DNA of 62,793 nt, filler included, from Planctomycetota bacterium (GCA_026991575.1; 5 parts of 5 records of this genome joined end to end with filler, not necessarily neighbours in it); one strand, 5' to 3'. Positions 7,716-18,880 are shown, numbered from the whole stretch's first letter. Notes: generated from the sequence alone by a model not told the origin. Made by a program: numbers and translations.

Positions 7716-8003
7716 GAAAGAGCGAACCCGGGTTCGGTTAACTGCGCCATGGTGCGCGACCATGGGCCGGGTGGGCCTGATCTTGACCGGTAGCGTGGAG
7801 CCCGGTAGGACGTGGCCCACCACCGGCGCAGCGGCGTGCCTTGGACGGGGGACAGAACACGTCGGAGGACAAGCTGATCGTCCTGTCCAGTGTTTTGGTT
7901 GAAGTCAGGCCAGGGACCTCGGCGCGGCAACGCTGGTGATGCCGGGCCGGGGGGTGTCGGTTTCCGGAGAGAGGCATCCGTACGGACGGGAAAGGAGGCA
8001 ACC

Positions 8004-11000
8004 TTGGTCAAGTCTCGTAAACTCGCAGTCCTTGTTGGTGGCGCCTTCGCTGCTACCGCTGCCGTGGGGGTGCTGGGGCTGCGCACGGTTTGGCACGTTC
8101 CGGAGGCGGTCGCCGAGCCTGCTCAGGCCCCAGCAACACCGCAGGAAGCCCTGCGCGAGGGTATCAGTCAGTTCCGCTTGGGCAACTATGCAAAGGCCAG
8201 TGACTGGTTTGCTGCGGCGGCAAAACGCGCCGACGAGCTGGCTGAGCCGGAGCGGGCTCTGTTGAAGAAGTACACCGAGCTGGCCAGCACAGCAGCGGCT
8301 CGTCAGGCCGAGGCCGAGAAGTGGCTCACGACCGCTCGCCAGGCGTTGCACCAGGGCCGGCGGGCCGAAGCCGAGAAAGCCGCCAGCCGGGTACTTACCA
8401 ACCCCTACGCCTCCGGTGCCCAGCGCACTCAGGCCAGGGGCCTGCTCAATCAGCTTGCCAAGGGGCAGACCGTTACGCCTGCCGCGGCGCCGTCGGCTGA
8501 GTCGACCGGCAGCGTCGTTGCAGCCACTCACGAGGTCCCGGCGGCGGACGCCGCACCGACGCCAACGAGCAATTACGTGGCCGCCACTGAGAAGGAAGCG
8601 GCCCAGAAGCTGATGGCCGAGGCGGTCGAGGCGCTCCGTGTCGGTGACCTGAATCGGGCCGAACAGCTTGCCCTGCAGGCAGCATCCTACGGCGCCAAAT
8701 TCGCCAAGGACGAGGTCACCCCTCAGGATGTGCTTCAAGCGGTGAACCGTGCGCGGCGGCTGCGCGGTACGAAGCCCATGACCGTACCGGCTGCCACGGC
8801 ACCTCGCGTCCAAGCGAAGCCCGTACGGCCGGCATCGGCAACATCCGCACCTGAGGGGCCTGCGGGCGCGACCGCGGCAGAGGCCACCACATCGGCTGCG
8901 CCACCGTCGGCCATCGTCGCCCCGGCTGGAGCGAAGACGAGCGGAGCCGACGAGGACCAACCCGCCAAGCCGACGGCCCAAACGTCCGAAGCAAGCATCG
9001 AATCGCTGAAGAGCCTGCCGCATGCGGAGCGGAAGAAGATCGCCCGCGAGCTCCTGAAGAGCGCCAGGGAGCTGATCGAGGCCGGCGTACTCGACGAAGC
9101 CGAGAAGCTGATCTCCCAGGCCGAGGAGCTCAATGTGCGTTGGGGCTGGTTCGAGGACTCGCCTGTTCGGCTCCGTCGCGCGCTGCGCCGTGCTCGAATC
9201 AAGCACTGGTTTGCCCAAGAGGACAGCCAGGCCGGGGCGGCTGTGTCCGGATCGAAGGAAGCGAAGACAGGCAGCGCTCCCGGCACATCACAAGAACACA
9301 GTCACCACAGTGCTCACGACCAGGACAGCGCCGCCAGGGCCAAGGAGCTGGTTCGCCAGGCGCGTGAGGCTTTGGCAAGCGGCGATCTGGACAAGGCCGA
9401 ACGGCTCGCCCTGGAGGCTCAGTCTTACGAGGTTCACTACGGTCTGTTTGACGATACGCCCGAGCGGGTGCTGGCCGATGTGGCTCGGATGCGTCAGGCA
9501 GAGGCTCATAGCCTGAAGCCACCGGCCGAATTGACCGACGCGGCCAGTGCCGCTATCGACAGCGAAGACGGTATTGATGCCGAGGTGCAACAGATCCCGG
9601 AGACCCGGCCCGAAGGCAGCGAGCGGGAACTGCGCAAGATCGCGGCCCAGCTTCTGGCCGAAGCGCGTCGACGGCTGGACCAGGGTGACTGGCGCAACGC
9701 ACGCGAGATTGCTCGCCGCGTCAAGAACTGGAACCTCCACTACGGGCTGTTCTGGCTGGGTGATACGCCTGACAAGGTGCTGCGTGCCTGTGACGTGCTC
9801 CGCCAGCGGATTGCGGCACGCCAGCGCGTCGAGCAAAAGGAAAAGGCCCGCAAGCTGCTGGCTGAAGCGCGCAAGCTGATCGATGCTGGCAAGTTGGATG
9901 AGGCCGAGGCGAAGGTGCTACAGGCCAAGCAGCTCGACGTGGCCTACGGCCTTCTGGAGGTCAAGCCAGATGACCTGCTGGCCGAAATCAAGGCGGTGCG
10001 CGAAGCCAGCGGATCAACCCCTGCGGCTTCGGAGAACGTTGAAGTTGCCGGTGCCGTGGTCGACGAGAAGAAGCAGCCTGCAGCCGAGGTGGCTGAGCAC
10101 ACGGCCGCTGAGGGCTCTGCCGATGAGGCACTCGTGAAGGCGTTGCTGCAGGAGGCTGAGGAGGCCGAGAAAGCAGGCGACGCCGCGACCGCCGCACGCA
10201 AGCGCGCGCTTGCGTACCAAATCGCTAACGTCCAGCCTCAAACCGGTGACGGCCAGCAAGCGGCGGAAGCGACCGGCCGCGCCAAGGCCGTGGCTTCCGA
10301 AGCGGCGGGTATCGAGACGACCGCAACGACCTCGCAGGCAAGCGAACAGGCCGGTGCCAGCGTGGCTGAGAGCGAGGCGGGCCGGGCCCGCGTCGTGCAC
10401 CGGGGCGTGACCCCGGCCGATGACAGCACGGCCAACGCCCGCAAGCGACTCGAACAGGCCAAAGCCCTGTACCGACAGGGCAACTATCCGAAAGCACGCG
10501 CCATTGCCCTGGAGATCGCAGAGTCCCATCCGGAGCTGGCTGCTGAGGCACGCGAGATCGCTTCGCAGGCAGAACTGACGGAGCTGAACACCGTCCTGGA
10601 GATCTTCAACGCAGGCGTGGCGGCGATGCGCAAGGGCGAGTACGCCCATGCCCTGCAGCTGTTCCGCCAGGTTGCCGGCGCTAACGTCACGCTCGATCCC
10701 GCAACGCAGCAGCAGCTCCAGGAGTACCTCACCCGGCTGCCCGTGTTGATCCGACAGAAGGAGATCGTTGATGTGGCAGCCGGTGGTCCGCAGCCTGCTT
10801 CCATGCAGCAAGGGGCAGTGCCCGGGCCGATGCCCGAGGAGTTGGCTGACCGGTACCAGCGGGAACGGATTCGCCTGCAGCAACTGATTGCCGACACCAA
10901 CAACCGGATCGCCGTGGCCCGGCAGAAGCTGGAGAGCGACCCGGAGGCGGCAATTGCCGAACTGCAGAACGCTCTGGAAGCGATCCGCAACAGCGGGCTG

Positions 11001-13199
11001 GACGAGGCGGCCACCATGCCGCTGGTGCGTCGCGTTGAGGCGGCTATCCGCTACGTCCAGCGCGAGAAGGAGCGGATCGAGCTGGAGCGCGTCCAGCAGC
11101 AGGCGCAGCTAGCGGCCGCTGAACAGCGGGCGCGGGAACTGGCCGCCGAGGCCCAACGCCAGAAGGAAGTCCAACAGCTCATCGAGCAAGGGCAGAGGCT
11201 CTTTGACCAGGGCCGCTTCGACGAAGCTCAAGTGATGGCCGAGCGCGCTCGTGAACTCGACCCCAACAACGTCGCGGCCCACGCCCTGTACTGGAAGGCA
11301 AAGATCAGCCGACGACTGGCCGAGGCCAAGCAGATCGAGTCGCTGGCCGAAGAAGGCTTCGTCAACGCCATGAACAGCGTCGACTGGTCGGCGATTCCCT
11401 ACGACGACCGCGACCCGGTGACGTTCCCCGACGCGAAGACCTGGCGTGAGCTCACCGAGCGGCGCAAGGCACGGTACAGCAGGATCGACGAGGCGTTCCG
11501 TAGCCAGATGGAGCTGGAAATCGAACGGAAGCTGGAAGAACCGATTGCCCCGTTTGACTTCCAGCAAACGCCGCTCTCGGAAGTGATCGACTTCCTGCGG
11601 GACGCCACCGGGGTGAACATCGTCGTCGACTGGCGCGGCCTCGAGCTGTCGGGCATCACCAGTAACGAGCCGGTGACCCTGCGGCTGGAGGGGGTCCGCT
11701 TCCGCTCGGCCCTCAACCTGCTTATGCAGCAGCTGGGCCTGACCTACTCAATCCGCGACGACGTCCTGCTGATTACCACTCCGTTGCGTGACCAGGGACG
11801 CCTGATCTCGCGAGTCTACGACGTGGCCGACCTGGTCGTGCCAATCCGCACTCTGCCAAAGATCGTCACCCCAATGGGTATCTTCAACTGGCCGGATGCG
11901 CAGACGGGCGGAGCCGGCGCCATGCCGTTTGTCATGCCAAACCAACCGCTGGCGCAGGTCGGTGTGGGCGGCTCCAGCTATGACGGCCAGTCGGCCTTTG
12001 GCGGGACCGGTACCGAGCCCGCCGGTACCGCAGGACCGCAGCCGGCTCAGGCCATCGACTTCGACACACTTATCGAGCTAATCAAGTCGACCGTCGCGCC
12101 GGACACCTGGGAGGACGCCGGCGGCGCAGGCACGATTGCCGAGTTCCCGGGCAACCTCAGCCTGGTCATCAGCCAGACCCAGGAGGTCCACGACCAGATC
12201 CGCGACCTGCTCCAGCAGCTCCGCCGTCTGCAGGACCTGCAGGTGGTCATCGAAGTGCGATTCATCACACTGACCGAGGACTTCCTGGAGCGGGTCGGCG
12301 TGGACATCGACATCGAGATCGACGACGATAGCCAGAAGCCGCTGCAGCCCTTCGGGCGCGACACCGATGATGACGGCATCGCGGACATCCTTCGCGACTT
12401 CGACCATCTGCAGAGTCTCACGGTGGGGCTCCGCGGACCGGATGGTGACTTCGCCGAGGACCTCGACATTCCGATCCGCACCCTTGGCTTCGCCCTGGGC
12501 CGGCCGGCGAACTTCGACACACCGGCCCTGCAGATGGGCGTCGCGTTCCTGAGCGACCTGGAGGTGTTCCTCTTCCTCGAGGCTGTGCAACAGGACAACC
12601 GCAGCAACGTGCTTATCGCCCCGAAGGTGACGCTGTTCAACGGCCAGCAAGCTTTCGTGTTCTCAGGCACACTGCGGTGGTCCGTGATAGCGCTGTTCCC
12701 GGTCGTCGCAGCCGGAGCAGTTGCGTTCCAGCCAGTCCCGCAGATGGTTCTCGACGGTGCGGCCCTGGTCGTGCAGGCGGTCGTGTCGGCAGACCGTCGC
12801 TACGTCCGGGTATCCGTGTCGCCGCTCTTTACGAACGTAGTCGGCGAGCGGCGGTTCCCGATCATCGCCAGCGCTCAGCAGATCGGCTTCGGCGGCGGCG
12901 GCCAGACACAGACGCTGGTCCAGGCCGAGCTGATCCTACCGATCATTGGCATGAACATCCTGACCACTACCGTGGCCGTGCCTGACGGTGGCACCGTGGT
13001 CTTGGGCGGACTGAAGTCCAAGACGGAAGAGCGCCGCGAGTTCGGGACACCGATCCTGAACAAGCTGCCGTACATCAACCGTCTGTTCATGCAGACCGGT
13101 GTGGGTACGGTCACCCAGAGCCTGCTCATGATGGTTACGCCACGCATCGTGATCCTGGAGGAGGAAGAGGAACTGCGTGGCATTGCCGTGACACCGTAG
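8004..13199 (+). CDS. Giant secretin-like (type II/III secretion, GspD/PilQ-like) protein with long helical-repeat N-terminus
   Basis: TTG at 8004 follows AAGGAGG and begins a signal-peptide-like N-terminus. Contains TPR-like repeats, an STN-like domain (FQQTPLSEVIDFLRDATGVNIVVD), an N-domain (LVISQTQEVHDQIRDLLQQLR) and the secretin C-terminal signature (VPDGGTVVLGGL...PILNKLPYINRLF...VTPRIV). Confidence 0.85.
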   Translation: MVKSRKLAVLVGGAFAATAAVGVLGLRTVWHVPEAVAEPAQAPATPQEALREGISQFRLGNYAKASDWFAAAAKRADELAEPERALLKKYTELASTAAARQAEAEKWLTTARQALHQGRRAEAEKAASRVLTNPYASGAQRTQARGLLNQLAKGQTVTPAAAPSAESTGSVVAATHEVPAADAAPTPTSNYVAATEKEAAQKLMAEAVEALRVGDLNRAEQLALQAASYGAKFAKDEVTPQDVLQAVNRARRLRGTKPMTVPAATAPRVQAKPVRPASATSAPEGPAGATAAEATTSAAPPSAIVAPAGAKTSGADEDQPAKPTAQTSEASIESLKSLPHAERKKIARELLKSARELIEAGVLDEAEKLISQAEELNVRWGWFEDSPVRLRRALRRARIKHWFAQEDSQAGAAVSGSKEAKTGSAPGTSQEHSHHSAHDQDSAARAKELVRQAREALASGDLDKAERLALEAQSYEVHYGLFDDTPERVLADVARMRQAEAHSLKPPAELTDAASAAIDSEDGIDAEVQQIPETRPEGSERELRKIAAQLLAEARRRLDQGDWRNAREIARRVKNWNLHYGLFWLGDTPDKVLRACDVLRQRIAARQRVEQKEKARKLLAEARKLIDAGKLDEAEAKVLQAKQLDVAYGLLEVKPDDLLAEIKAVREASGSTPAASENVEVAGAVVDEKKQPAAEVAEHTAAEGSADEALVKALLQEAEEAEKAGDAATAARKRALAYQIANVQPQTGDGQQAAEATGRAKAVASEAAGIETTATTSQASEQAGASVAESEAGRARVVHRGVTPADDSTANARKRLEQAKALYRQGNYPKARAIALEIAESHPELAAEAREIASQAELTELNTVLEIFNAGVAAMRKGEYAHALQLFRQVAGANVTLDPATQQQLQEYLTRLPVLIRQKEIVDVAAGGPQPASMQQGAVPGPMPEELADRYQRERIRLQQLIADTNNRIAVARQKLESDPEAAIAELQNALEAIRNSGLDEAATMPLVRRVEAAIRYVQREKERIELERVQQQAQLAAAEQRARELAAEAQRQKEVQQLIEQGQRLFDQGRFDEAQVMAERARELDPNNVAAHALYWKAKISRRLAEAKQIESLAEEGFVNAMNSVDWSAIPYDDRDPVTFPDAKTWRELTERRKARYSRIDEAFRSQMELEIERKLEEPIAPFDFQQTPLSEVIDFLRDATGVNIVVDWRGLELSGITSNEPVTLRLEGVRFRSALNLLMQQLGLTYSIRDDVLLITTPLRDQGRLISRVYDVADLVVPIRTLPKIVTPMGIFNWPDAQTGGAGAMPFVMPNQPLAQVGVGGSSYDGQSAFGGTGTEPAGTAGPQPAQAIDFDTLIELIKSTVAPDTWEDAGGAGTIAEFPGNLSLVISQTQEVHDQIRDLLQQLRRLQDLQVVIEVRFITLTEDFLERVGVDIDIEIDDDSQKPLQPFGRDTDDDGIADILRDFDHLQSLTVGLRGPDGDFAEDLDIPIRTLGFALGRPANFDTPALQMGVAFLSDLEVFLFLEAVQQDNRSNVLIAPKVTLFNGQQAFVFSGTLRWSVIALFPVVAAGAVAFQPVPQMVLDGAALVVQAVVSADRRYVRVSVSPLFTNVVGERRFPIIASAQQIGFGGGGQTQTLVQAELILPIIGMNILTTTVAVPDGGTVVLGGLKSKTEERREFGTPILNKLPYINRLFMQTGVGTVTQSLLMMVTPRIVILEEEEELRGIAVTP
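8598..10000 (+). repeat. Five ~50-aa helical repeats within the giant secretin
   Basis: Consensus A..L..EAR..L..G.L..AE....A....V.(Y/W)GLF.D.P..VL at approximately 8598, 9039, 9336, 9639 and 9843. Confidence 0.75.
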
Positions 13200-13232
13200 C
13201 CCTGGCCTGGCGGCGGGTGTCTGTCGTCCGGC

Positions 13233-13265
13233 AGACGGGCCTCCCGTCCGGGAGGCCCGTCTTTC
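13233..13265 (+). terminator. Intrinsic terminator-like hairpin after the secretin gene
   Basis: AGACGGGCCTCCCG-TC-CGGGAGGCCCGTCT inverted repeat followed by only TTC (weak U tract). Confidence 0.7.
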
Positions 13266-13505
13266 ATGCGCACCGGAGCAGGTCAGCTGTTACCTGGCGG
13301 TCGCTACCGCTGGCTGTCTTCACTGCCCCCTGATCTGGACCGGGCGGCCGTGCCCACCAGGCCCAGCCTTGCCGTGGGACACACCCTCAGCTCTGCTCAC
13401 TCTGCCGGCCACAGCACCGATCCTCCGCAGAACTCGCGCCAGGAACACCGTTGCGATTCCGTTGCTTGATTCCGCCGCGTTTCGCTCAAACACACCCCGC
13501 GGGCA

Positions 13506-13910
13506 CTAGCCACCTACGAGCGGCACCAACTTGATGAAGGTGATCTGGGTACGCGAATTCACCACGAACTCTTCATCCAGCGACGTGGCCTGTTTGTCGT
13601 CAACGAGGATCAAAAACAGGTTCCGGGAGAAGGCCTCCAGCGCTTTCTCGTACTGTTCCTTCCAATCGATCTCCCGGCGTCGTTCAAAGCGATACGCTAG
13701 CCTGTTGCCATTGATGATGCGCTCGGTGTCCGTGGGTTGCACCAGGCCACGGAAGACGTTGCCTCGGCCAAGGTTAAAGTCCTTTACCTCCTGGTAGACG
13801 CGCTCACGGATAAGTTCCCGAACCGTAATCCGCTCGGACGGCAGTTCGAGCGGCATCTCGTAAACATCGCCCGCCGTCGTTTCGTCTCGAACAGTCAACG
13901 TTACGCTCAT
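13506..13910 (-). CDS. Small protein ending in di-glycine; putative ubiquitin-like (beta-grasp) protein
   Basis: 134 aa. N-terminal beta-strands and ITVRELI helix, C-terminal LILVDDKQ...LDEEFVVN...ITFIKLVPLVGG resembling MoaD/ThiS/Ubl termini. Lies 47 nt downstream of the DUF4132 gene on the same strand. Confidence 0.7.
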   Translation of the reverse strand: MSVTLTVRDETTAGDVYEMPLELPSERITVRELIRERVYQEVKDFNLGRGNVFRGLVQPTDTERIINGNRLAYRFERRREIDWKEQYEKALEAFSRNLFLILVDDKQATSLDEEFVVNSRTQITFIKLVPLVGG

Positions 13911-13957
13911 GGAACCGCTCCCGGCGCAAGATGCGCTCCTGGCGTGTCAACGGACCG

Positions 13958-16900
13958 CTATTTCCCTTCGATCTGGCGGAGGATGGTTCGGTCCGTGATC
14001 TTCGAATCTTCGGCGAGGAGCAATGCCTTGCTGATGATGAGAGACAGCATGATATCGCCCTCAAACGGCAAGAACAGATTGCTCAGCCCCAGTTGGCCGC
14101 GCGGGTCGGGCACGATACAGAGATACTGATCGTTGGGTTCCATGAGAATGTTACCCGAACCGAGGTGGATCTTGTACGTCCTTTTCTGGCCACGGACGAC
14201 GAGGAACCGGTCGGTGAACGAGCACCGATCGGCGATTTTCAGACGTGGAACAAGGCGTTGCAGGACCTCCTTACGTGTCGCGGCCGTCTCGGACAGTTCG
14301 CCAAACGCGTATCCGTGCCAGTAGTCCCGGAACCGGGCCTCGGGACCGCCGTCCTGCCAGGTCGGGTCGTTGCCGATGGAGGCGACCCCGACAAACAAAT
14401 CGACGTCCCGCATGACCTCCGAGAACACGAGTGGTGGGATCTGCTCCAGAGGTAAAGGCTCATTCACGGCGTCCTGACCAGGTCCCCCCGCTGCGCTGAT
14501 ATATCGCCCGCCGGGCTCGACCGTGTTCTGAGCACCCTGGATCCGATAGAAGCGGACCTGGTCGGTCGACAGCAGCCAGAAGACCCCCGCTTCGTTCGTA
14601 TCCCGGCCGTAATTCTCTCCGATCCCGTAGACCCAGTACTCGGCACGGATTCCCCACGCTGGCAGCTCTTTGGTGGCCGGCGGGGATTCCCCGTCCACCA
14701 GGAGTTGCAGGCTGTATTTCCAGCCCCGGGCCGCGGCAAGCGCGCTGAACTGGTGCTGACGGACCACGTGTGCCGCAAAGCGATTCGAGTACACGCGTGT
14801 TCTCCGCTCCGCGTCGGTCAGCAGGTAGATTTCCCGGTGAGCTTGCTTGAATGGCTGTGTGATGCCAAGTTCCTCAAGACGGTCTCTCCATGCCACGATC
14901 TCATCGACCGTGCGGCCAATAGGGTGCCAGAGCGTAACTTCGGCGTTCTTGCCGACACGTACTGGCTTGCCGTCGATGTCCCTCGGGACGCCGTCGGCTG
15001 GCAACACGGGCACTCCGTCAATGCACCAGATCAGACGACGGGCGATCGTGCCGACTAGCGGATGATCCAGGTACCGCTCGCGCCACTGTTCGAATGGCCA
15101 TGACCTGCGCGCAAGGAAAAGCGATTCAATACGGTTACGCTGGGCAACCAGCGAGCTCTTGATGTCCTTGAGCGTACGTTTCAGCTCGCCAACCTCGTCC
15201 TTGTATTCCTTCCGTACCTTTGCCGGCGTGGACTTCAGAGCCTTCCCCTTGGGATCGAACCACGTCAGTTTCGCGTCCGAGCCGGTCACGATCAATTCAG
15301 CGCGATAACCGCCGACGTCCTCGCTTCGCTTGCCGACCTCCTGTAAACCAAACGTAGGAACTGCCAGCTCTTCGACCTCGTCGCTGGGTACGTCCAGGGC
15401 CTCAGCGACCGAACGGAACGCCTTGGCGACTTCCTTTTGGGCTGTACCAAACTTGACTCGCGTCTTCAGAATGGCGAGCTGTCCCACGGCCTCAGGCGAT
15501 CTCATGTTGGAGAGCGCGTAAACGGCGGCGTTGCCAACTTTGACTGCCCGCGGTCCGACGCCGGGTACTTTCTTGTATGCGCTCATCGCTAGGGACGAGA
15601 TCACGCGGGCGAGCGATTCAGGCCGAGGTAGGGTCTGCGTCAGCCAAAGCAGTCCTCGCAAGCACGTTGCATTGCCATCGTTCATCGTTCCGATGGTGCC
15701 GGGCTCCTCGCCGCGATCCCTGTCCAGCCTGGAGAACGATCGACCGGCTGGTACGAGCGAGAACCAGCGCTCGAGCCTTTCCCGCACTAGGTCCGGGCCA
15801 ATCGCCTGCACGTGCTCCTGGGCTGTGTCTAGCCATTTCTTAGACGGACGTGCGGACCTCGCGGTCAAACAATGTGCTAGCAGCTCGGCCCACAACCTTC
15901 GCTGTCCAGCATCCATGGCTGCCAGGTCCTCATTGACTGCCTCGGCCCACACCTCACCCGGAGCCAGGAAGAGCATCGGTCGATCTCCAATCAACCGCGT
16001 CAACTGGGCAACTTCGGCGCTGACCGTACCGAGGGGCGGACCTGGAATCAGCGACGTGCGAAGGAGATGCAACACAAACCGTTCCCCTTCGGTTAGCGGC
16101 TTGTCCTTAGCGTGCTCTTTGACCGCCGAAATCGACTCGTCGATCAGACCCTGATATCTCACCTGCCATGTCTCATCAATAGCTGCCAGGAACAACAGGA
16201 GGTCGAACGTTCCGTCACGTGGCAGGACCATAGGTTGCTTCAGCAGAAGCCGGAGTAATGTGCCGACAACCCTTCTGGCCAGATACATGCGCTCGTCGTC
16301 GCGCGGTGCGCATAACTCCAGGTGAACGTAGCGCTCGGCAGTGGCGAGAGCAGCCAGCGCCCTGCCGCCATGGTCCTGGTTTAGGAGAACTCGTCCTGTG
16401 GGGAACTCCTCCGGGTCCGGATCGCCGTATGGTGGCTGCCCTGATGCCGCAACCTCACCCAGCAACTTGCTCAATAAGCGGTGCTGTGCGACCAATGGGG
16501 AATCCTGAACGAGAGGAAACTGGTCGGTTTCGAGAGTCTCAGCGACGCGGATCTCGGTGGCGGACAACATGCCATAGCGTTGCTTTAGCAGGTGGAAAAC
16601 GCCGGTCATGCCCGCCGGCGCGGGTCGTGGCGGTGGTTGTGTCGCGATCCGTTCGGTCTCGGCGTCCGCATCACTCTTGTAACCACACAATCGCTCCACT
16701 CGTGCAGCCAGCCGATTTGCGTCCCTATCGATGGGTGTAGCTCGCAGGAGGGTAGCCAATCGGCGCATCGCCGCTCGTAGGTCGTCGCCTGGTGGCCTGC
16801 CAGATAGGCATTGTTCTACCGTCCGTACGAGCGATACGACCGGATAGTTGTAACTGTCCACGTACGTGGTGTCCTTGCACCAGCCTAAAAGCACGAGCAA

Positions 16901-17290
16901 GTCCTTCTCGTCGAAAGGCAGTTTCCGTCGAAGCAAGGCGCGGAGTGCCACCTCCACCGCACGCCGCCTGCACCAGATTGCTCCCCAACCAGGCGAGTGG
17001 TAGTGGATTCCGTCACCCACCTGCGCGCGAAACTCGGCTACTTTCGACAGCCAGTGCTGGAACTGAATTGCTGCCGCAAGCGCATAACGGCGTGCCTGAT
17101 TGCGCGTAGCCTGCAGTAACTTCCTTCCACTGGGGCACTCCTTCAGTAAACTCGGCTCGCAGTCGCAAGCTCGCTCTTCGCCCACTAGCGCCACCGCTTC
17201 TTCGATCCAGCGCACCAAAGTCCGGTGCTCCTCGGCCAGCGGGTCATCGGGCGAAACGTGCATGTGCTCGGGTGGAACTGGTCTTGCCAT
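13958..17290 (-). CDS. DUF4132 domain-containing protein (YehI/MolR-like)
   Basis: 1110 aa. Contains W...YLDHPLVGTIARRLIW, VTLWHP, QPFKQAHREIY, VFSEVMRDVDLFVGVASIGNDPTW and YKIHLGSGNILMEPNDQYLCIVP, typical of DUF4132 proteins. Confidence 0.85.
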   Translation of the reverse strand: MARPVPPEHMHVSPDDPLAEEHRTLVRWIEEAVALVGEERACDCEPSLLKECPSGRKLLQATRNQARRYALAAAIQFQHWLSKVAEFRAQVGDGIHYHSPGWGAIWCRRRAVEVALRALLRRKLPFDEKDLLVLLGWCKDTTYVDSYNYPVVSLVRTVEQCLSGRPPGDDLRAAMRRLATLLRATPIDRDANRLAARVERLCGYKSDADAETERIATQPPPRPAPAGMTGVFHLLKQRYGMLSATEIRVAETLETDQFPLVQDSPLVAQHRLLSKLLGEVAASGQPPYGDPDPEEFPTGRVLLNQDHGGRALAALATAERYVHLELCAPRDDERMYLARRVVGTLLRLLLKQPMVLPRDGTFDLLLFLAAIDETWQVRYQGLIDESISAVKEHAKDKPLTEGERFVLHLLRTSLIPGPPLGTVSAEVAQLTRLIGDRPMLFLAPGEVWAEAVNEDLAAMDAGQRRLWAELLAHCLTARSARPSKKWLDTAQEHVQAIGPDLVRERLERWFSLVPAGRSFSRLDRDRGEEPGTIGTMNDGNATCLRGLLWLTQTLPRPESLARVISSLAMSAYKKVPGVGPRAVKVGNAAVYALSNMRSPEAVGQLAILKTRVKFGTAQKEVAKAFRSVAEALDVPSDEVEELAVPTFGLQEVGKRSEDVGGYRAELIVTGSDAKLTWFDPKGKALKSTPAKVRKEYKDEVGELKRTLKDIKSSLVAQRNRIESLFLARRSWPFEQWRERYLDHPLVGTIARRLIWCIDGVPVLPADGVPRDIDGKPVRVGKNAEVTLWHPIGRTVDEIVAWRDRLEELGITQPFKQAHREIYLLTDAERRTRVYSNRFAAHVVRQHQFSALAAARGWKYSLQLLVDGESPPATKELPAWGIRAEYWVYGIGENYGRDTNEAGVFWLLSTDQVRFYRIQGAQNTVEPGGRYISAAGGPGQDAVNEPLPLEQIPPLVFSEVMRDVDLFVGVASIGNDPTWQDGGPEARFRDYWHGYAFGELSETAATRKEVLQRLVPRLKIADRCSFTDRFLVVRGQKRTYKIHLGSGNILMEPNDQYLCIVPDPRGQLGLSNLFLPFEGDIMLSLIISKALLLAEDSKITDRTILRQIEGK

Positions 17291-17384
17291 CGTTATCCCC
17301 TTGCAACGTGCCGTTGCCCGGAGAAACTGGTTCGGTGATCCTCGAGCCTCCAGATTTGACCCGACGGGTCAGCATGGCGCGCCC

Positions 17385-17414
17385 AGTCTAGACTTCCGTC
17401 CAAACGGTTGTCAA
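17385..17414 (-). promoter_or_regulatory. Putative sigma70 promoter of the DUF4132-Ubl operon
   Basis: Minus strand reads TTGACA-N18-TAGACT, about 95 nt upstream of the ATG at 17290. Confidence 0.55.
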
Positions 17415-17524
17415 GGAGCAAGCCGGTTGGAGCTGGACACTTCGCGGACGGCAACCAGAGTGGGGTCACCGCCCCTGCACGCTGTGCGCACCCACTGCAG
17501 AAGGCGAATTGCGCGGCACGGCCG

Positions 17525-18880
17525 TCAGCGGTCTGCGGCAGCAGCTTCGCGTCCGGCCCGCTCGCTGTCGCTGGTCCGGCGACGCAAGAACATGCGGATA
17601 GGGACCTCGGGGTAGGGCGAACGCTCACGGAACCCCGACAGCAGGTACCGCTGATAAGTGGCGTCGAACAGCTCCGGATCATTGCAGAACAGGACCAGCG
17701 TGGGTGGTCGCGTCGAGACCTGCGTGCCGTAGTAGATCTTTGGCCGGCGGTTACGCCGAATCGGCGGCGCGTGTGCCTCCAGCAGCTCCTCCAAGATCCG
17801 GTTTACCTGACCGGTGTTCAACCGCTGCCCTGCCTGGTCGTGGAGCTGCCAGGCCATGTCCAACAGTGCCTTGACGTTCTTGCCTGTCTTGGCCGAGATG
17901 AACACGATCGGTACGTATGGCATGTTCCGGAGGTGCGAGCGAATCGCTGAAGCCATCCGCCGCGTGGGCATCGGATGCATGAGGTCCCACTTGTTGACCA
18001 CGAAGATGCAAGGCTTGTATTCGTCGGCAACCTGCGCGGCCAGCCGCTTTTCGACCCGCGTCACGCCTTCGGTTGGATCGAAAAAGATGAAGACCACGTC
18101 CGCCCGACGGATCGATCGCTCTGCGCGCGCGATGCTGTAGAAGTCGACCGGGGTTGCGATCGAGCGGCTGCGCATCACGCCCGCCGTGTCGATCACCAGG
18201 TACTTCCTGCCGTCCAGTTCCACGAGCACGTCGACGGCGTCCCGCGTCGTGCCCGGACGTTCACTGACGATGACCCGCTCGGCCCGAGCAAGGGTGTTGA
18301 CGAAGGTGCTCTTACCCGCGTTCCGCCTGCCAACGACTGCCAGCTTCAGTTCGGGGGACGCGACCGCGTCCTCTTCGGACACGTCCGGTAACCGTTCCAG
18401 GATTGCCTCGATCAGCTCCGCCTTTCCGCGGTTGTGACAGGCGCTGACGCAGACCAGCTTTCCGCGGCCCAGCTTGTAGAACTCAGCCGCCAGGTCGTCG
18501 TGGCCGGGCGTATCGCACTTGTTCGCCGCCAGGACCACGGGCTTGTTCACATAGCGCAATTTCCGGGCGACCATCTCGTCCAGTGGCATGATACCTGTCT
18601 GCACGTCAACTACGAACACGATCAGATCCGCGCTCTCGATCGCCCGGTCGATCTGGCGCTCCACGAGCTGCCCGAGTTGGTCCAGATCGGCGATACCCAT
18701 ACCGCCCGTGTCCACTAGCTCAACCGGCCGCCCTTCGAACTCCACAACCGTGCTCACCCGATCGCGTGTCACGCCCATCATCGGGTCCACGATAGAGATT
18801 CGGCGACCGGCAAGCCAGTTGAAAATCGACGACTTGCCTACATTGGGTCGACCGACAATGACTACCTGCGGTAAAGCCAC
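17525..18880 (-). CDS. der: Ribosome biogenesis GTPase Der (EngA)
   Basis: Two tandem GTPase domains (GRPNVGKS/DTGG/NKCD and GRRNAGKS/DTAG/NKWD) plus a KH-like C-terminus. Confidence 0.97.
   Translation of the reverse strand: MALPQVVIVGRPNVGKSSIFNWLAGRRISIVDPMMGVTRDRVSTVVEFEGRPVELVDTGGMGIADLDQLGQLVERQIDRAIESADLIVFVVDVQTGIMPLDEMVARKLRYVNKPVVLAANKCDTPGHDDLAAEFYKLGRGKLVCVSACHNRGKAELIEAILERLPDVSEEDAVASPELKLAVVGRRNAGKSTFVNTLARAERVIVSERPGTTRDAVDVLVELDGRKYLVIDTAGVMRSRSIATPVDFYSIARAERSIRRADVVFIFFDPTEGVTRVEKRLAAQVADEYKPCIFVVNKWDLMHPMPTRRMASAIRSHLRNMPYVPIVFISAKTGKNVKALLDMAWQLHDQAGQRLNTGQVNRILEELLEAHAPPIRRNRRPKIYYGTQVSTRPPTLVLFCNDPELFDATYQRYLLSGFRERSPYPEVPIRMFLRRRTSDSERAGREAAAADR

Follow-up and report, generated by a model that had tools for sequence, protein, structure and literature searches.

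The stretch of DNA considered here, called the window throughout, comprises 62,793 nucleotides of Planctomycetota bacterium (GCA_026991575.1), and coordinates are positions within it. On its minus strand lie two neighbouring genes, one for a 134-residue ubiquitin-like protein (Ubl) that ends in Gly-Gly (GG) and one for a 1110-residue protein with the domains DUF4132 and DUF7737. Together they point to an undescribed protein-tagging module without its own activating enzyme. Our preferred reading, to which we would give slightly less than an even chance, is that of a Ubl served by a giant E2-like carrier, with an E1 that comes from elsewhere or is unknown. An earlier note on this DNA had singled out the pair as a candidate conjugation or defence module. 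A literature search found no description of the pairing of such a Ubl with a DUF4132-DUF7737 protein; the DUF4132 papers considered held nothing on a Ubl, and no paper naming DUF7737, PF24879 or PF13569 was found. Known bacterial Ubl systems are E1-E2-JAB-Ubl operons or sulfur-carrier pairs, and the module described here would keep only a Ubl and a scaffold-fused E2-like domain. The features on which the argument rests are the following.

13958..17290, minus strand: DUF4132-DUF7737 gene, 1110 residues (open reading frame (ORF); Pfam)
14720..15247, minus strand: DUF4132 domain (PF13569), residues 682-857 (Pfam E 1.3e-52, 178.8 bits)
14375..14797, minus strand: middle alpha/beta domain, about residues 832-972 (AF2 model residues 193-333)
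13970..14281, minus strand: DUF7737 (PF24879), residues 1004-1107, putatively E2/UBC-like (Pfam E 6e-41, 139 bits)
14165..14167, minus strand: His1042 codon (KIHLGSGN), from the translation; invariant in alignments A2 and A3
14117..14119, minus strand: Cys1058 codon (QYLCIVP), from the translation; candidate Ubl-accepting cysteine, invariant in 51/51
13506..13910, minus strand: predicted ubiquitin-like beta-grasp gene, 134 residues, ending ...LVPLVGG-stop (ITFIKLVPLVGG-stop) (ORF, AF2 model)
13509..13514, minus strand: Gly133-Gly134 codons immediately 5' of the stop (sequence)

The small protein and its gene partner

A ubiquitin-like beta-grasp fold with a free, flexible C-terminal GG is well supported for the small protein by its predicted structure. 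The AF2 model (pLDDT 71.6) runs from two N-terminal strands through a long helix, some 50 inserted residues modelled with low confidence and three further strands to a disordered tail, of which residues 132-134 score below 50. A beta-grasp fold with a large central insertion had been predicted in the earlier note, and the structure searches place the protein there: in an all-against-all VIA search of 48,161 solved chains, the top 50 rows are all ubiquitin-like or MoaD-type beta-grasp folds, and 114 chains reach a Z of at least 5. The best match is 5mpo_B, human MOCS2A (Z 8.0, root-mean-square deviation (rmsd) 3.2, 79 aligned residues), the UBL of HOIL-1L reaches Z 7.2 with an rmsd of 1.9, and ubiquitin, ISG15, SUMO and FAT10 come close behind MoaD (Z 5.7-7.5). 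Foldseek returned the same fold in its top rows, MoaD chains included, with a best E of merely 1.2e-3. At the level of sequence the protein matches no Pfam, NCBIfam or PADLOC family at E<=1 save for two chance-level Pfam rows; no ThiS/MoaD-type family of Pfam or NCBIfam is among its matches, and no PDB sequence fell below E 0.8 in a profile search.

The family to which it belongs is large, with 2016 proteins at E<=0.001 in a 90%-clustered set and 1434 representatives at the same threshold in a set clustered at 50% identity. The free C-terminal GG, which the earlier note had pointed out in this one sequence, is a family trait. It is the last dipeptide in 119/120 close relatives and in 137 of the 150 representatives at 50% identity, the 13 exceptions looking truncated or frameshifted, and it is invariant in alignment A1 of the small-protein relatives. 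Genuine fused forms of the small protein were not found; only three longer proteins occur, all of them frameshift- or readthrough-like.

The partnership of the two genes was surveyed in one genome per species. A small-protein relative was present in 301 species, and 79 loci were kept. The co-occurrence of the large gene with a GG-ending partner, until then noted at a single locus, proved to be the rule: a DUF4132-DUF7737 gene adjoins the small gene on the same strand in 76/79 loci, and the three misses lie at contig ends. Both orders are found, with the small gene first in 44 and the large gene first in 28 of 72 loci. The same association holds within the Planctomycetota, where the large gene lies on the same contig, within a few kilobases, in 22 of the 23 sampled genomes that carry the small gene. 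There is no conserved third gene, and no other neighbour cluster exceeds 9/79 loci, in a rough clustering whose top clusters are filled by high-GC shadow ORFs of the pair. Comparative genomics could hardly make a stronger case for the predicted functional link between the two genes. One of the loci counted here, L056, comes from a genome marked as unpublished; it adds a single row or locus to the totals, and none of the conclusions hinges on it.

The 79 loci span five phyla, namely Planctomycetota, Gemmatimonadota, Verrucomicrobiota, Acidobacteriota and Armatimonadota, and the small gene is also found on large replicons of Nonomuraea, Chondrinema, Fulvitalea and Novosphingobium. Its distribution covers at least eight bacterial phyla. 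In the RefSeq annotation of Chondrinema the pair reads as a 'hypothetical protein' followed by a 'DUF4132 domain-containing protein'. With its 1434 clusters at 50% identity and its matches in 301 species, the module is both strongly conserved and widespread.

Several loci hold tandem extra copies (L050 6468-9329; L018 7950-9719; L035 632-5436; L065 4747-10934; G355:C55). In a Verrucomicrobia metagenome-assembled genome among them, three small-family ORFs precede one large gene; elsewhere a single small gene is flanked or followed by two DUF4132-DUF7737 genes, and the extra copy in L035 lacks the Cys of DUF7737 that is discussed below.

DUF7737, Cys1058 and the Gly-Gly tail

The large protein had been described as a DUF4132 protein. 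Pfam bears this out and adds DUF7737 at the C-terminus, both domains exceeding the gathering cut-off of 27 bits; the DUF4132 stretch was also recovered by a genome search. Residues 1-680 match no family, and the protein as a whole has no PADLOC or NCBIfam family (PADLOC-DB 2.0, E<=1). A profile search of PDB sequences with it returned nothing. Among its relatives, 7472 of 8000 scored candidates lie at E<=0.001, and PF13569 occurs together with PF24879 in every one of the best 120. The C-terminal half shares 65-71% identity with proteins of other planctomycete orders, one near-copy at 95% apart; the databases name the cultured Planctomicrobium piriforme and Anatilimnocola aggregata among the carriers. 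The middle domain scores best in VIA against 2pww_A, a functionally uncharacterised protein from Bacillus clausii (Z 7.5, rmsd 3.8, 106 aligned), and TBP-like and KA1 folds also match at Z 4-5.

DUF7737 was modelled by AF2 within residues 640-1110, from an alignment of 51 sequences (pLDDT 83.2). In the VIA search with this model, 26 of the top 50 rows fall on DUF7737 (model residues 352-471), and 21 of these 26 are E2, ubiquitin E2 variant (UEV) or RWD folds at Z 4.1-5.0. They include 2f4w_A (Z 5.0, rmsd 3.6, 88 aligned; UBE2J2 is among the E2s), 1zdn_A (4.9), FANCL (4.8) and Atg10 (4.6), as well as E2S, UBC9, UbcH5 and the UBE2O chain 9mc9_B (Z 4.1); one match, 8tyz_C (Z 4.6, rmsd 5.3, 98 aligned), is a chain of a bacterial E1-E2-Ubl complex. 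The model reads helix, four strands, Cys1058, two helices, and helix, four strands, Cys and two helices is the topology of E2 enzymes. These data weakly suggest an E2/UBC-like fold for DUF7737. The call rests on the consistency of the matches and not on their strength, because the Z values lie under the tool's noise guide of 7-8.

The His and Cys that had been picked out as candidate catalytic residues (YKIHLGSG...QYLCIVP) are both present, and both are invariant in the main clade, in 32/32 and 51/51 aligned relatives. The column of His1042 holds H in all but two of the DUF7737 rows that cover it. Cys1058 sits after the fourth strand of the model, the position where E2 enzymes have theirs. An HPN motif upstream of the Cys is a hallmark of E2 enzymes; in the main clade H-L-G-S-G-N ends 11 residues before Cys1058 and is not a literal HPN. 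A zinc site formed by C1023, H1042 and C1058 was considered and rejected, distant Cys-bearing members being without C1023.

The state of the Cys column was then set against the tail of the adjacent small ORF for all DUF7737-bearing ORFs in the loci, 97 rows in total.

Cys present, 82 rows: partner with GG in 80; otherwise in 1 (L063, IG); no partner in 1 (G137)
Cys absent, 12 rows: partner with GG in 3; otherwise in 3 (GA, GA, SG); no partner in 6 (4 at contig ends)
Fragments without the Cys column, 3 rows: not scored

Cys and GG tail co-vary. The Cys is replaced in 12 of the 94 assessable rows, mostly in distant or orphan forms, and the tails in GA or SG, three in number, are all found next to large partners without the Cys, as one would expect of a Cys and a terminal glycine that act jointly. 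Of the three rows that combine a missing Cys with a GG partner, one represents an additional large gene next to a complete pair. Two Cys-less orphans are assessable, G018 (Cys to Ile) and G336 (Cys to Ala), each with at least 3 kb of flank on either side, and no small gene was found anywhere in either genome.

A proposed tagging mechanism and its alternatives

In the mechanism that we propose, the two genes would encode a dedicated ubiquitin-like system. The Ubl would end in its flexible, unprocessed GG tail, and the large protein would be a scaffold, made of the N-terminal region and DUF4132, that ends in the E2-like DUF7737. We infer that Cys1058 would take the C-terminal glycine of the Ubl as a thioester, and that the Ubl could then be handed on, whether to some target or to the large protein. 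Activation, which the module would not encode, would most likely be borrowed from a housekeeping E1 of MoeB/ThiF type; alternatively, it might be performed by an unrecognised part of the large protein.

A number of observations weigh against this proposal. Some concern the fold: the E2 likeness of DUF7737 stays below the noise guide, Foldseek with the C-terminal model gave no match at E<=0.001 (best E 0.15), UQ_con was not listed by Pfam for the large protein at E<=1, ESM Atlas returned no usable match with residues 995-1110, and the Asn of H-x4-N is kept in the main clade only. Others concern the co-variation: a single clade of related sequences makes up most of the rows counted, and the counts lack phylogenetic independence. 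The Cys-bearing pair of L063 has a tail in IG, on an ORF that continues 31 codons past the homologous end, probably owing to a 3' frameshift, and the Cys-bearing protein of G137 has no partner anywhere in its genome. Moreover, distant relatives of 1600-2000 residues with V, A, Y, N or L in place of the Cys keep a Ubl partner, and two such Cys-less pairs, L092 and L098, still have a GG tail. Since the Cys-less distant relatives keep their partner, the Cys is not required for pairing or binding, and the pair may serve a non-catalytic purpose in some lineages. A further group concerns activation: in a scan of 75 of the 163 listed flanking ORFs, from 36 of 41 loci, neither the module nor its flanks showed an E1 (ThiF), a JAB or another adenylating fold. 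A ThiF match is present in all 23 small-gene carriers of the Planctomycetota sample; because 387 of the 401 genomes sampled have ThiF, its presence is uninformative, non-discriminating and permissive only.

Co-folding of the two proteins, a check that the earlier note had called for, gave weak support for an interaction. The Ubl folded with residues 640-1110 scored an ipSAE of 0.52, the best of three controls scoring 0.00; runs agreed in at least 66% of contacts, and the pLDDT of the partner was at least 71. The mark used was reached by 116/157 solved complexes and 2/215 mismatched pairs, and at scores of 0.60 or under just 18/157 solved complexes passed, along with both of the passing mismatches. 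The run gave no contact list and its score is silent on the position of the GG tail relative to Cys1058, which also counts on the negative side.

The same observations bear on a serious, if rather doubtful, alternative, namely that the pair forms a non-covalent complex in which the Ubl is a stable regulatory or structural subunit, DUF7737 is a catalytically dead holder of UEV or RWD type and the GG merely fits a pocket. The survival of the pair in distant Cys-less relatives, some with GA or SG tails, would be accommodated by such a complex, as would the lack of a linked E1 or JAB gene and the weakly supportive co-fold. RWD and UEV folds are indeed among the structural matches of DUF7737, and both proteins are conserved over their whole length at 65-70% identity across orders, as for a tight complex. 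It is at odds with the GG placed right before the stop codon in 119/120 and 137/150 relatives with no fused forms, with a Cys kept in 51/51 main-clade proteins, and with the restriction of GA and SG tails to Cys-less partners, as coupled chemistry predicts.

In one of the distant Cys-less pairs, L092 (G359:C3, 4752-5810), the large ORF of the 1868-residue relative has no stop before the small gene, and the two halves of the small gene lie in different frames; this is either an assembly error or a decaying or fused copy.

The preferred reading, a Ubl with a giant E2-like carrier, assumes an E1 in trans. The source genome has two ThiF-family genes, both on other contigs, the better of which lies between a pyridoxal-phosphate enzyme and a class-V aminotransferase, a sulfur-relay setting. 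Archaeal SAMP/UbaA and Thermus TtuB/TtuC rely on one housekeeping E1, whose gene lies elsewhere, to activate a GG-ended Ubl, much as would be the case here; unlike the window pair, these systems are without an E2-like component and a DUF4132 partner. If the Cys-GG chemistry is real, either one housekeeping E1 serves both sulfur transfer and protein tagging in bacteria, as it does in archaea, or a new activation mechanism is involved. The proposed carrier itself would resemble UBE2O and BIRC6, the giant eukaryotic E2/E3 hybrid enzymes, in which a very large scaffold with a UBC-type domain holds the Ubl and selects targets, as may be the case here. There is no detectable sequence relation with them, the bacterial protein has a Ubl gene of its own and its chemistry is putative.

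The earlier note had also entertained activation of the Ubl by the large protein. This is conjecture and found no support; no nucleotide-binding fold was recognised in the protein. A self-sufficient two-protein system, in which the large protein would need no Rossmann-type E1 to activate its own Ubl and, with Cys1058 as the carrier, would bring it to targets, is unlikely in our estimation; it would, if real, represent a minimal E1-independent form of protein tagging across at least eight phyla, possibly switched on by DNA damage or oxidative stress.

The distribution of DUF4132 bears on this point. In E. coli YehI the domain occurs alone (Pfam E 2e-47; hhalign probability 98% over A3 columns 5-194, DUF4132 only), and the C-terminus of its small neighbour YehK is not GG. 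Profile searches of the 401 Planctomycetota genomes gave 16 with DUF4132-only matches, none of which has the small gene. Because DUF4132-only proteins occur without a small GG gene, the Ubl goes with the DUF7737-bearing architecture; the link between Ubl and DUF4132 protein that had been suggested thus stands for the DUF4132-DUF7737 architecture but not for DUF4132 per se. That the Ubl is tied to the DUF7737 end argues against DUF4132 as a hidden E1. Although proteins of the YehI/MolR type have the DUF4132 domain in common with the window protein, YehI ends soon after it, without the middle domain or DUF7737, and its setting of WGR, MoxR, VWA and SWIM genes is a different partner set from that of the Ubl-bearing form. 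In E. coli K-12 (L085 6475-20945) the yehH pseudogene and yehI (DUF4132) cluster with the WGR gene yehF and with genes for a MoxR ATPase, a VWA protein and a SWIM zinc-finger protein.

A sulfur carrier has also to be weighed. MoaD-MoaE, ThiS-ThiG and CysO-CysM resemble the window pair in the beta-grasp fold and free GG, in a carrier encoded beside its partner and in an E1 that may lie elsewhere. They differ in that the window pair matches none of their sequence families and its large partner has none of the known synthase folds, ending instead in a putative UBC-like domain with an invariant Cys. Conservation of ThiS and MoaD is, in addition, far below the 65-70% identity of the window pair across orders. 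That the Ubl is a MoaD/ThiS/CysO-like thiocarboxylate carrier, charged by a MoeB-type E1 and a cysteine desulfurase, with the large protein using or receiving the sulfur, we hold to be quite unlikely. It would echo the old link of MolR with molybdate metabolism and would agree with MOCS2A as the best structural match, with the recurrence of MoaD chains and with the setting of the best ThiF gene; sulfur carriers are, moreover, normally encoded beside their partner enzyme and away from E2 and JAB genes. However, ubiquitin, ISG15, SUMO and FAT10 nearly equal MoaD in the same search, the small protein has no ThiS/MoaD-type Pfam family at E<=1, and no MoaE, ThiG, CysM or rhodanese domain was recognised by Pfam in the large protein. 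Two of the 75 flanking ORFs in relatives are molybdoenzymes, which might be taken in its favour but is within chance. To our knowledge, a UBC-like domain with an invariant Cys occurs in no known sulfur-carrier pathway.

A physiological setting for the module may be sought in Deinococcus. According to PMC8533742, the D. radiodurans drA0165-drA0166 operon is a target of DdrO with a radiation/desiccation response motif (RDRM) at -83, and DRA0166 has a DUF4132 domain and is induced as a protein by mitomycin C. In PMC9650054, DR_A0165 is described as a small stress-related protein that pulls down thioredoxin, and the RDRM is said to be absent, a point on which the two papers disagree. A small gene directly upstream of a DUF4132 gene recalls the pairing described here, and a conserved C-terminal region is reported for DRA0165 (PMC8533742 / PMC9650054), a likeness by description only. 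By analogy with this operon, which is no more than a candidate homologue, the physiological role of the module may be stress- or DNA-damage-related. The proposal in any case gives a concrete hypothesis for DUF4132 (YehI/MolR, DRA0166) and for DUF7737, both families of unknown function.

Distribution, neighbours and transcription signals

The module is accessory, with a patchy distribution. The small gene occurs in 23/401 sampled Planctomycetota genomes (17/244 of those of high quality), a broader profile raising the count to 28/401, and in 2/251 genomes of the phylum of G415, one being the centre genome of the sample; an orthologous pair was not found in the closest sampled relatives of the source genome. 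The accessory status follows from these two facts, the small number of sampled genomes with the small gene and closest relatives without an ortholog. Synteny as proof of an insertion was considered and set aside, the gene order around der being rearranged in relatives with no clean empty site; one genome of the same order has the secretin end, a 360-residue gene and der within 3.8 kb, without the pair.

Such patchiness raises the question of antiphage defence of Bil/Bub type, in which the Ubl would be conjugated to phage proteins upon infection. Bil and Bub operons consist of E1, E2, JAB and Ubl, and known bacterial Ubl-E2 systems are antiphage. They too place a small beta-grasp protein with a glycine tail next to one that combines an E2-like fold with a conserved Cys. 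In the window pair, however, neither E1 nor JAB, which define those operons, is linked (0/75 flanking ORFs). The Ubl ends exactly at GG and needs no trimming, unlike that of Bil/Bub, and it has an insert of about 50 residues; the putative E2-like domain is the tail of a DUF4132 protein of 850-2000 residues. Apart from the patchy distribution and the lack of an orthologous copy in the closest sampled relatives, the lower G+C of the pair (0.58-0.62, with 0.63-0.68 in the upstream flank and 0.64 immediately downstream) could be quoted for defence. Neither protein has a PADLOC model, and the 75 flanking ORFs show no defence-island hallmark, being unrelated metabolic or housekeeping genes that differ by locus, with two PIN-domain genes and the two molybdoenzymes among them. 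The window pair itself sits between der and a secretin gene. No relatives were found in viral contigs, nor in phage records by tblastn, and the sole phage-family match, phrog_20839, is to the DUF4132 part only. The defence role suggested earlier thus gains no support from PADLOC, from the ordinary, variable flanks or from phages, and we consider it highly improbable.

The description of the locus itself in the earlier note was accurate. The two ORFs, the gap of 47 nucleotides and the setting between der and the secretin gene are all at the coordinates claimed, on the minus strand, with der/EngA (two GTPase domains and a KH-like domain) upstream and a convergent secretin gene of 1769 residues on the other side. 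No E1, E2, JAB, thiamine or molybdopterin-synthesis gene is adjacent, as had been remarked, and this extends to the relatives, where no UBC family was found among the 75 flanking ORFs of 36 loci. Two further features complete the layout.

17385..17414, minus strand: promoter candidate, sigma-70-like TTGACA-N18-TAGACT, 10/12 consensus matches, 95 nucleotides upstream of the ATG of the large gene
13911..13957, minus strand: spacer of 47 nucleotides with a Shine-Dalgarno-like GGGAG 9 nucleotides before the ATG of the small gene (sequence)

Of the promoter that had been assigned to the pair, the sequence is present, as the single site of its kind in 13100-17800, but it is not significant by itself. 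It can be regarded only as a candidate because shuffled sequence gives 1.0 +/- 1.0 such sites. Strand, spacing and the conserved adjacency of the two genes suggest co-transcription. No terminator-like site was found on the minus strand between the two genes or beyond the small gene, and the 73 nucleotides past the stop of the small gene are no more stably folded than shuffled sequence (z +1.1).

A perfect 6+1+6 palindrome, GACCCGTCGGGTC, lies at 17358-17370, beginning 15 nucleotides downstream of the -10 hexamer of the promoter candidate, and could be an operator or a hairpin of the 5' untranslated region. It does not recur upstream of the genes at related loci; the upstream regions of 73 loci yielded no palindrome in common, and LexA-box or RDRM-like patterns are no commoner there than in shuffles, a few of these regions being over-long.

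The secretin gene (7890-13199, plus strand) is unusually long for its kind. Its Secretin domain takes up only the last 200 residues and is preceded by about 1500 residues of Ala/Glu-rich, tetratricopeptide-repeat-like sequence. Contig C43 covers positions 1-24238 of the window; 24239-62793 are N or lie off that contig.

Elsewhere, the exception among the 23 Planctomycetota carriers is the small GG gene of G038 (L094, G038:C94, 4027-6274), which is without its large partner; directly upstream of it stands a TnpB/IS605-OrfB-like gene with a Cas12f1-like TNB domain, which suggests that the pair was disrupted by a transposon. In L032 (4081-6711) a Pnkp-type RNA repair enzyme (kinase-phosphatase-ligase) is encoded just upstream of the pair, and in two other loci PIN-domain genes stand beside it; all of these are single cases that form no pattern.

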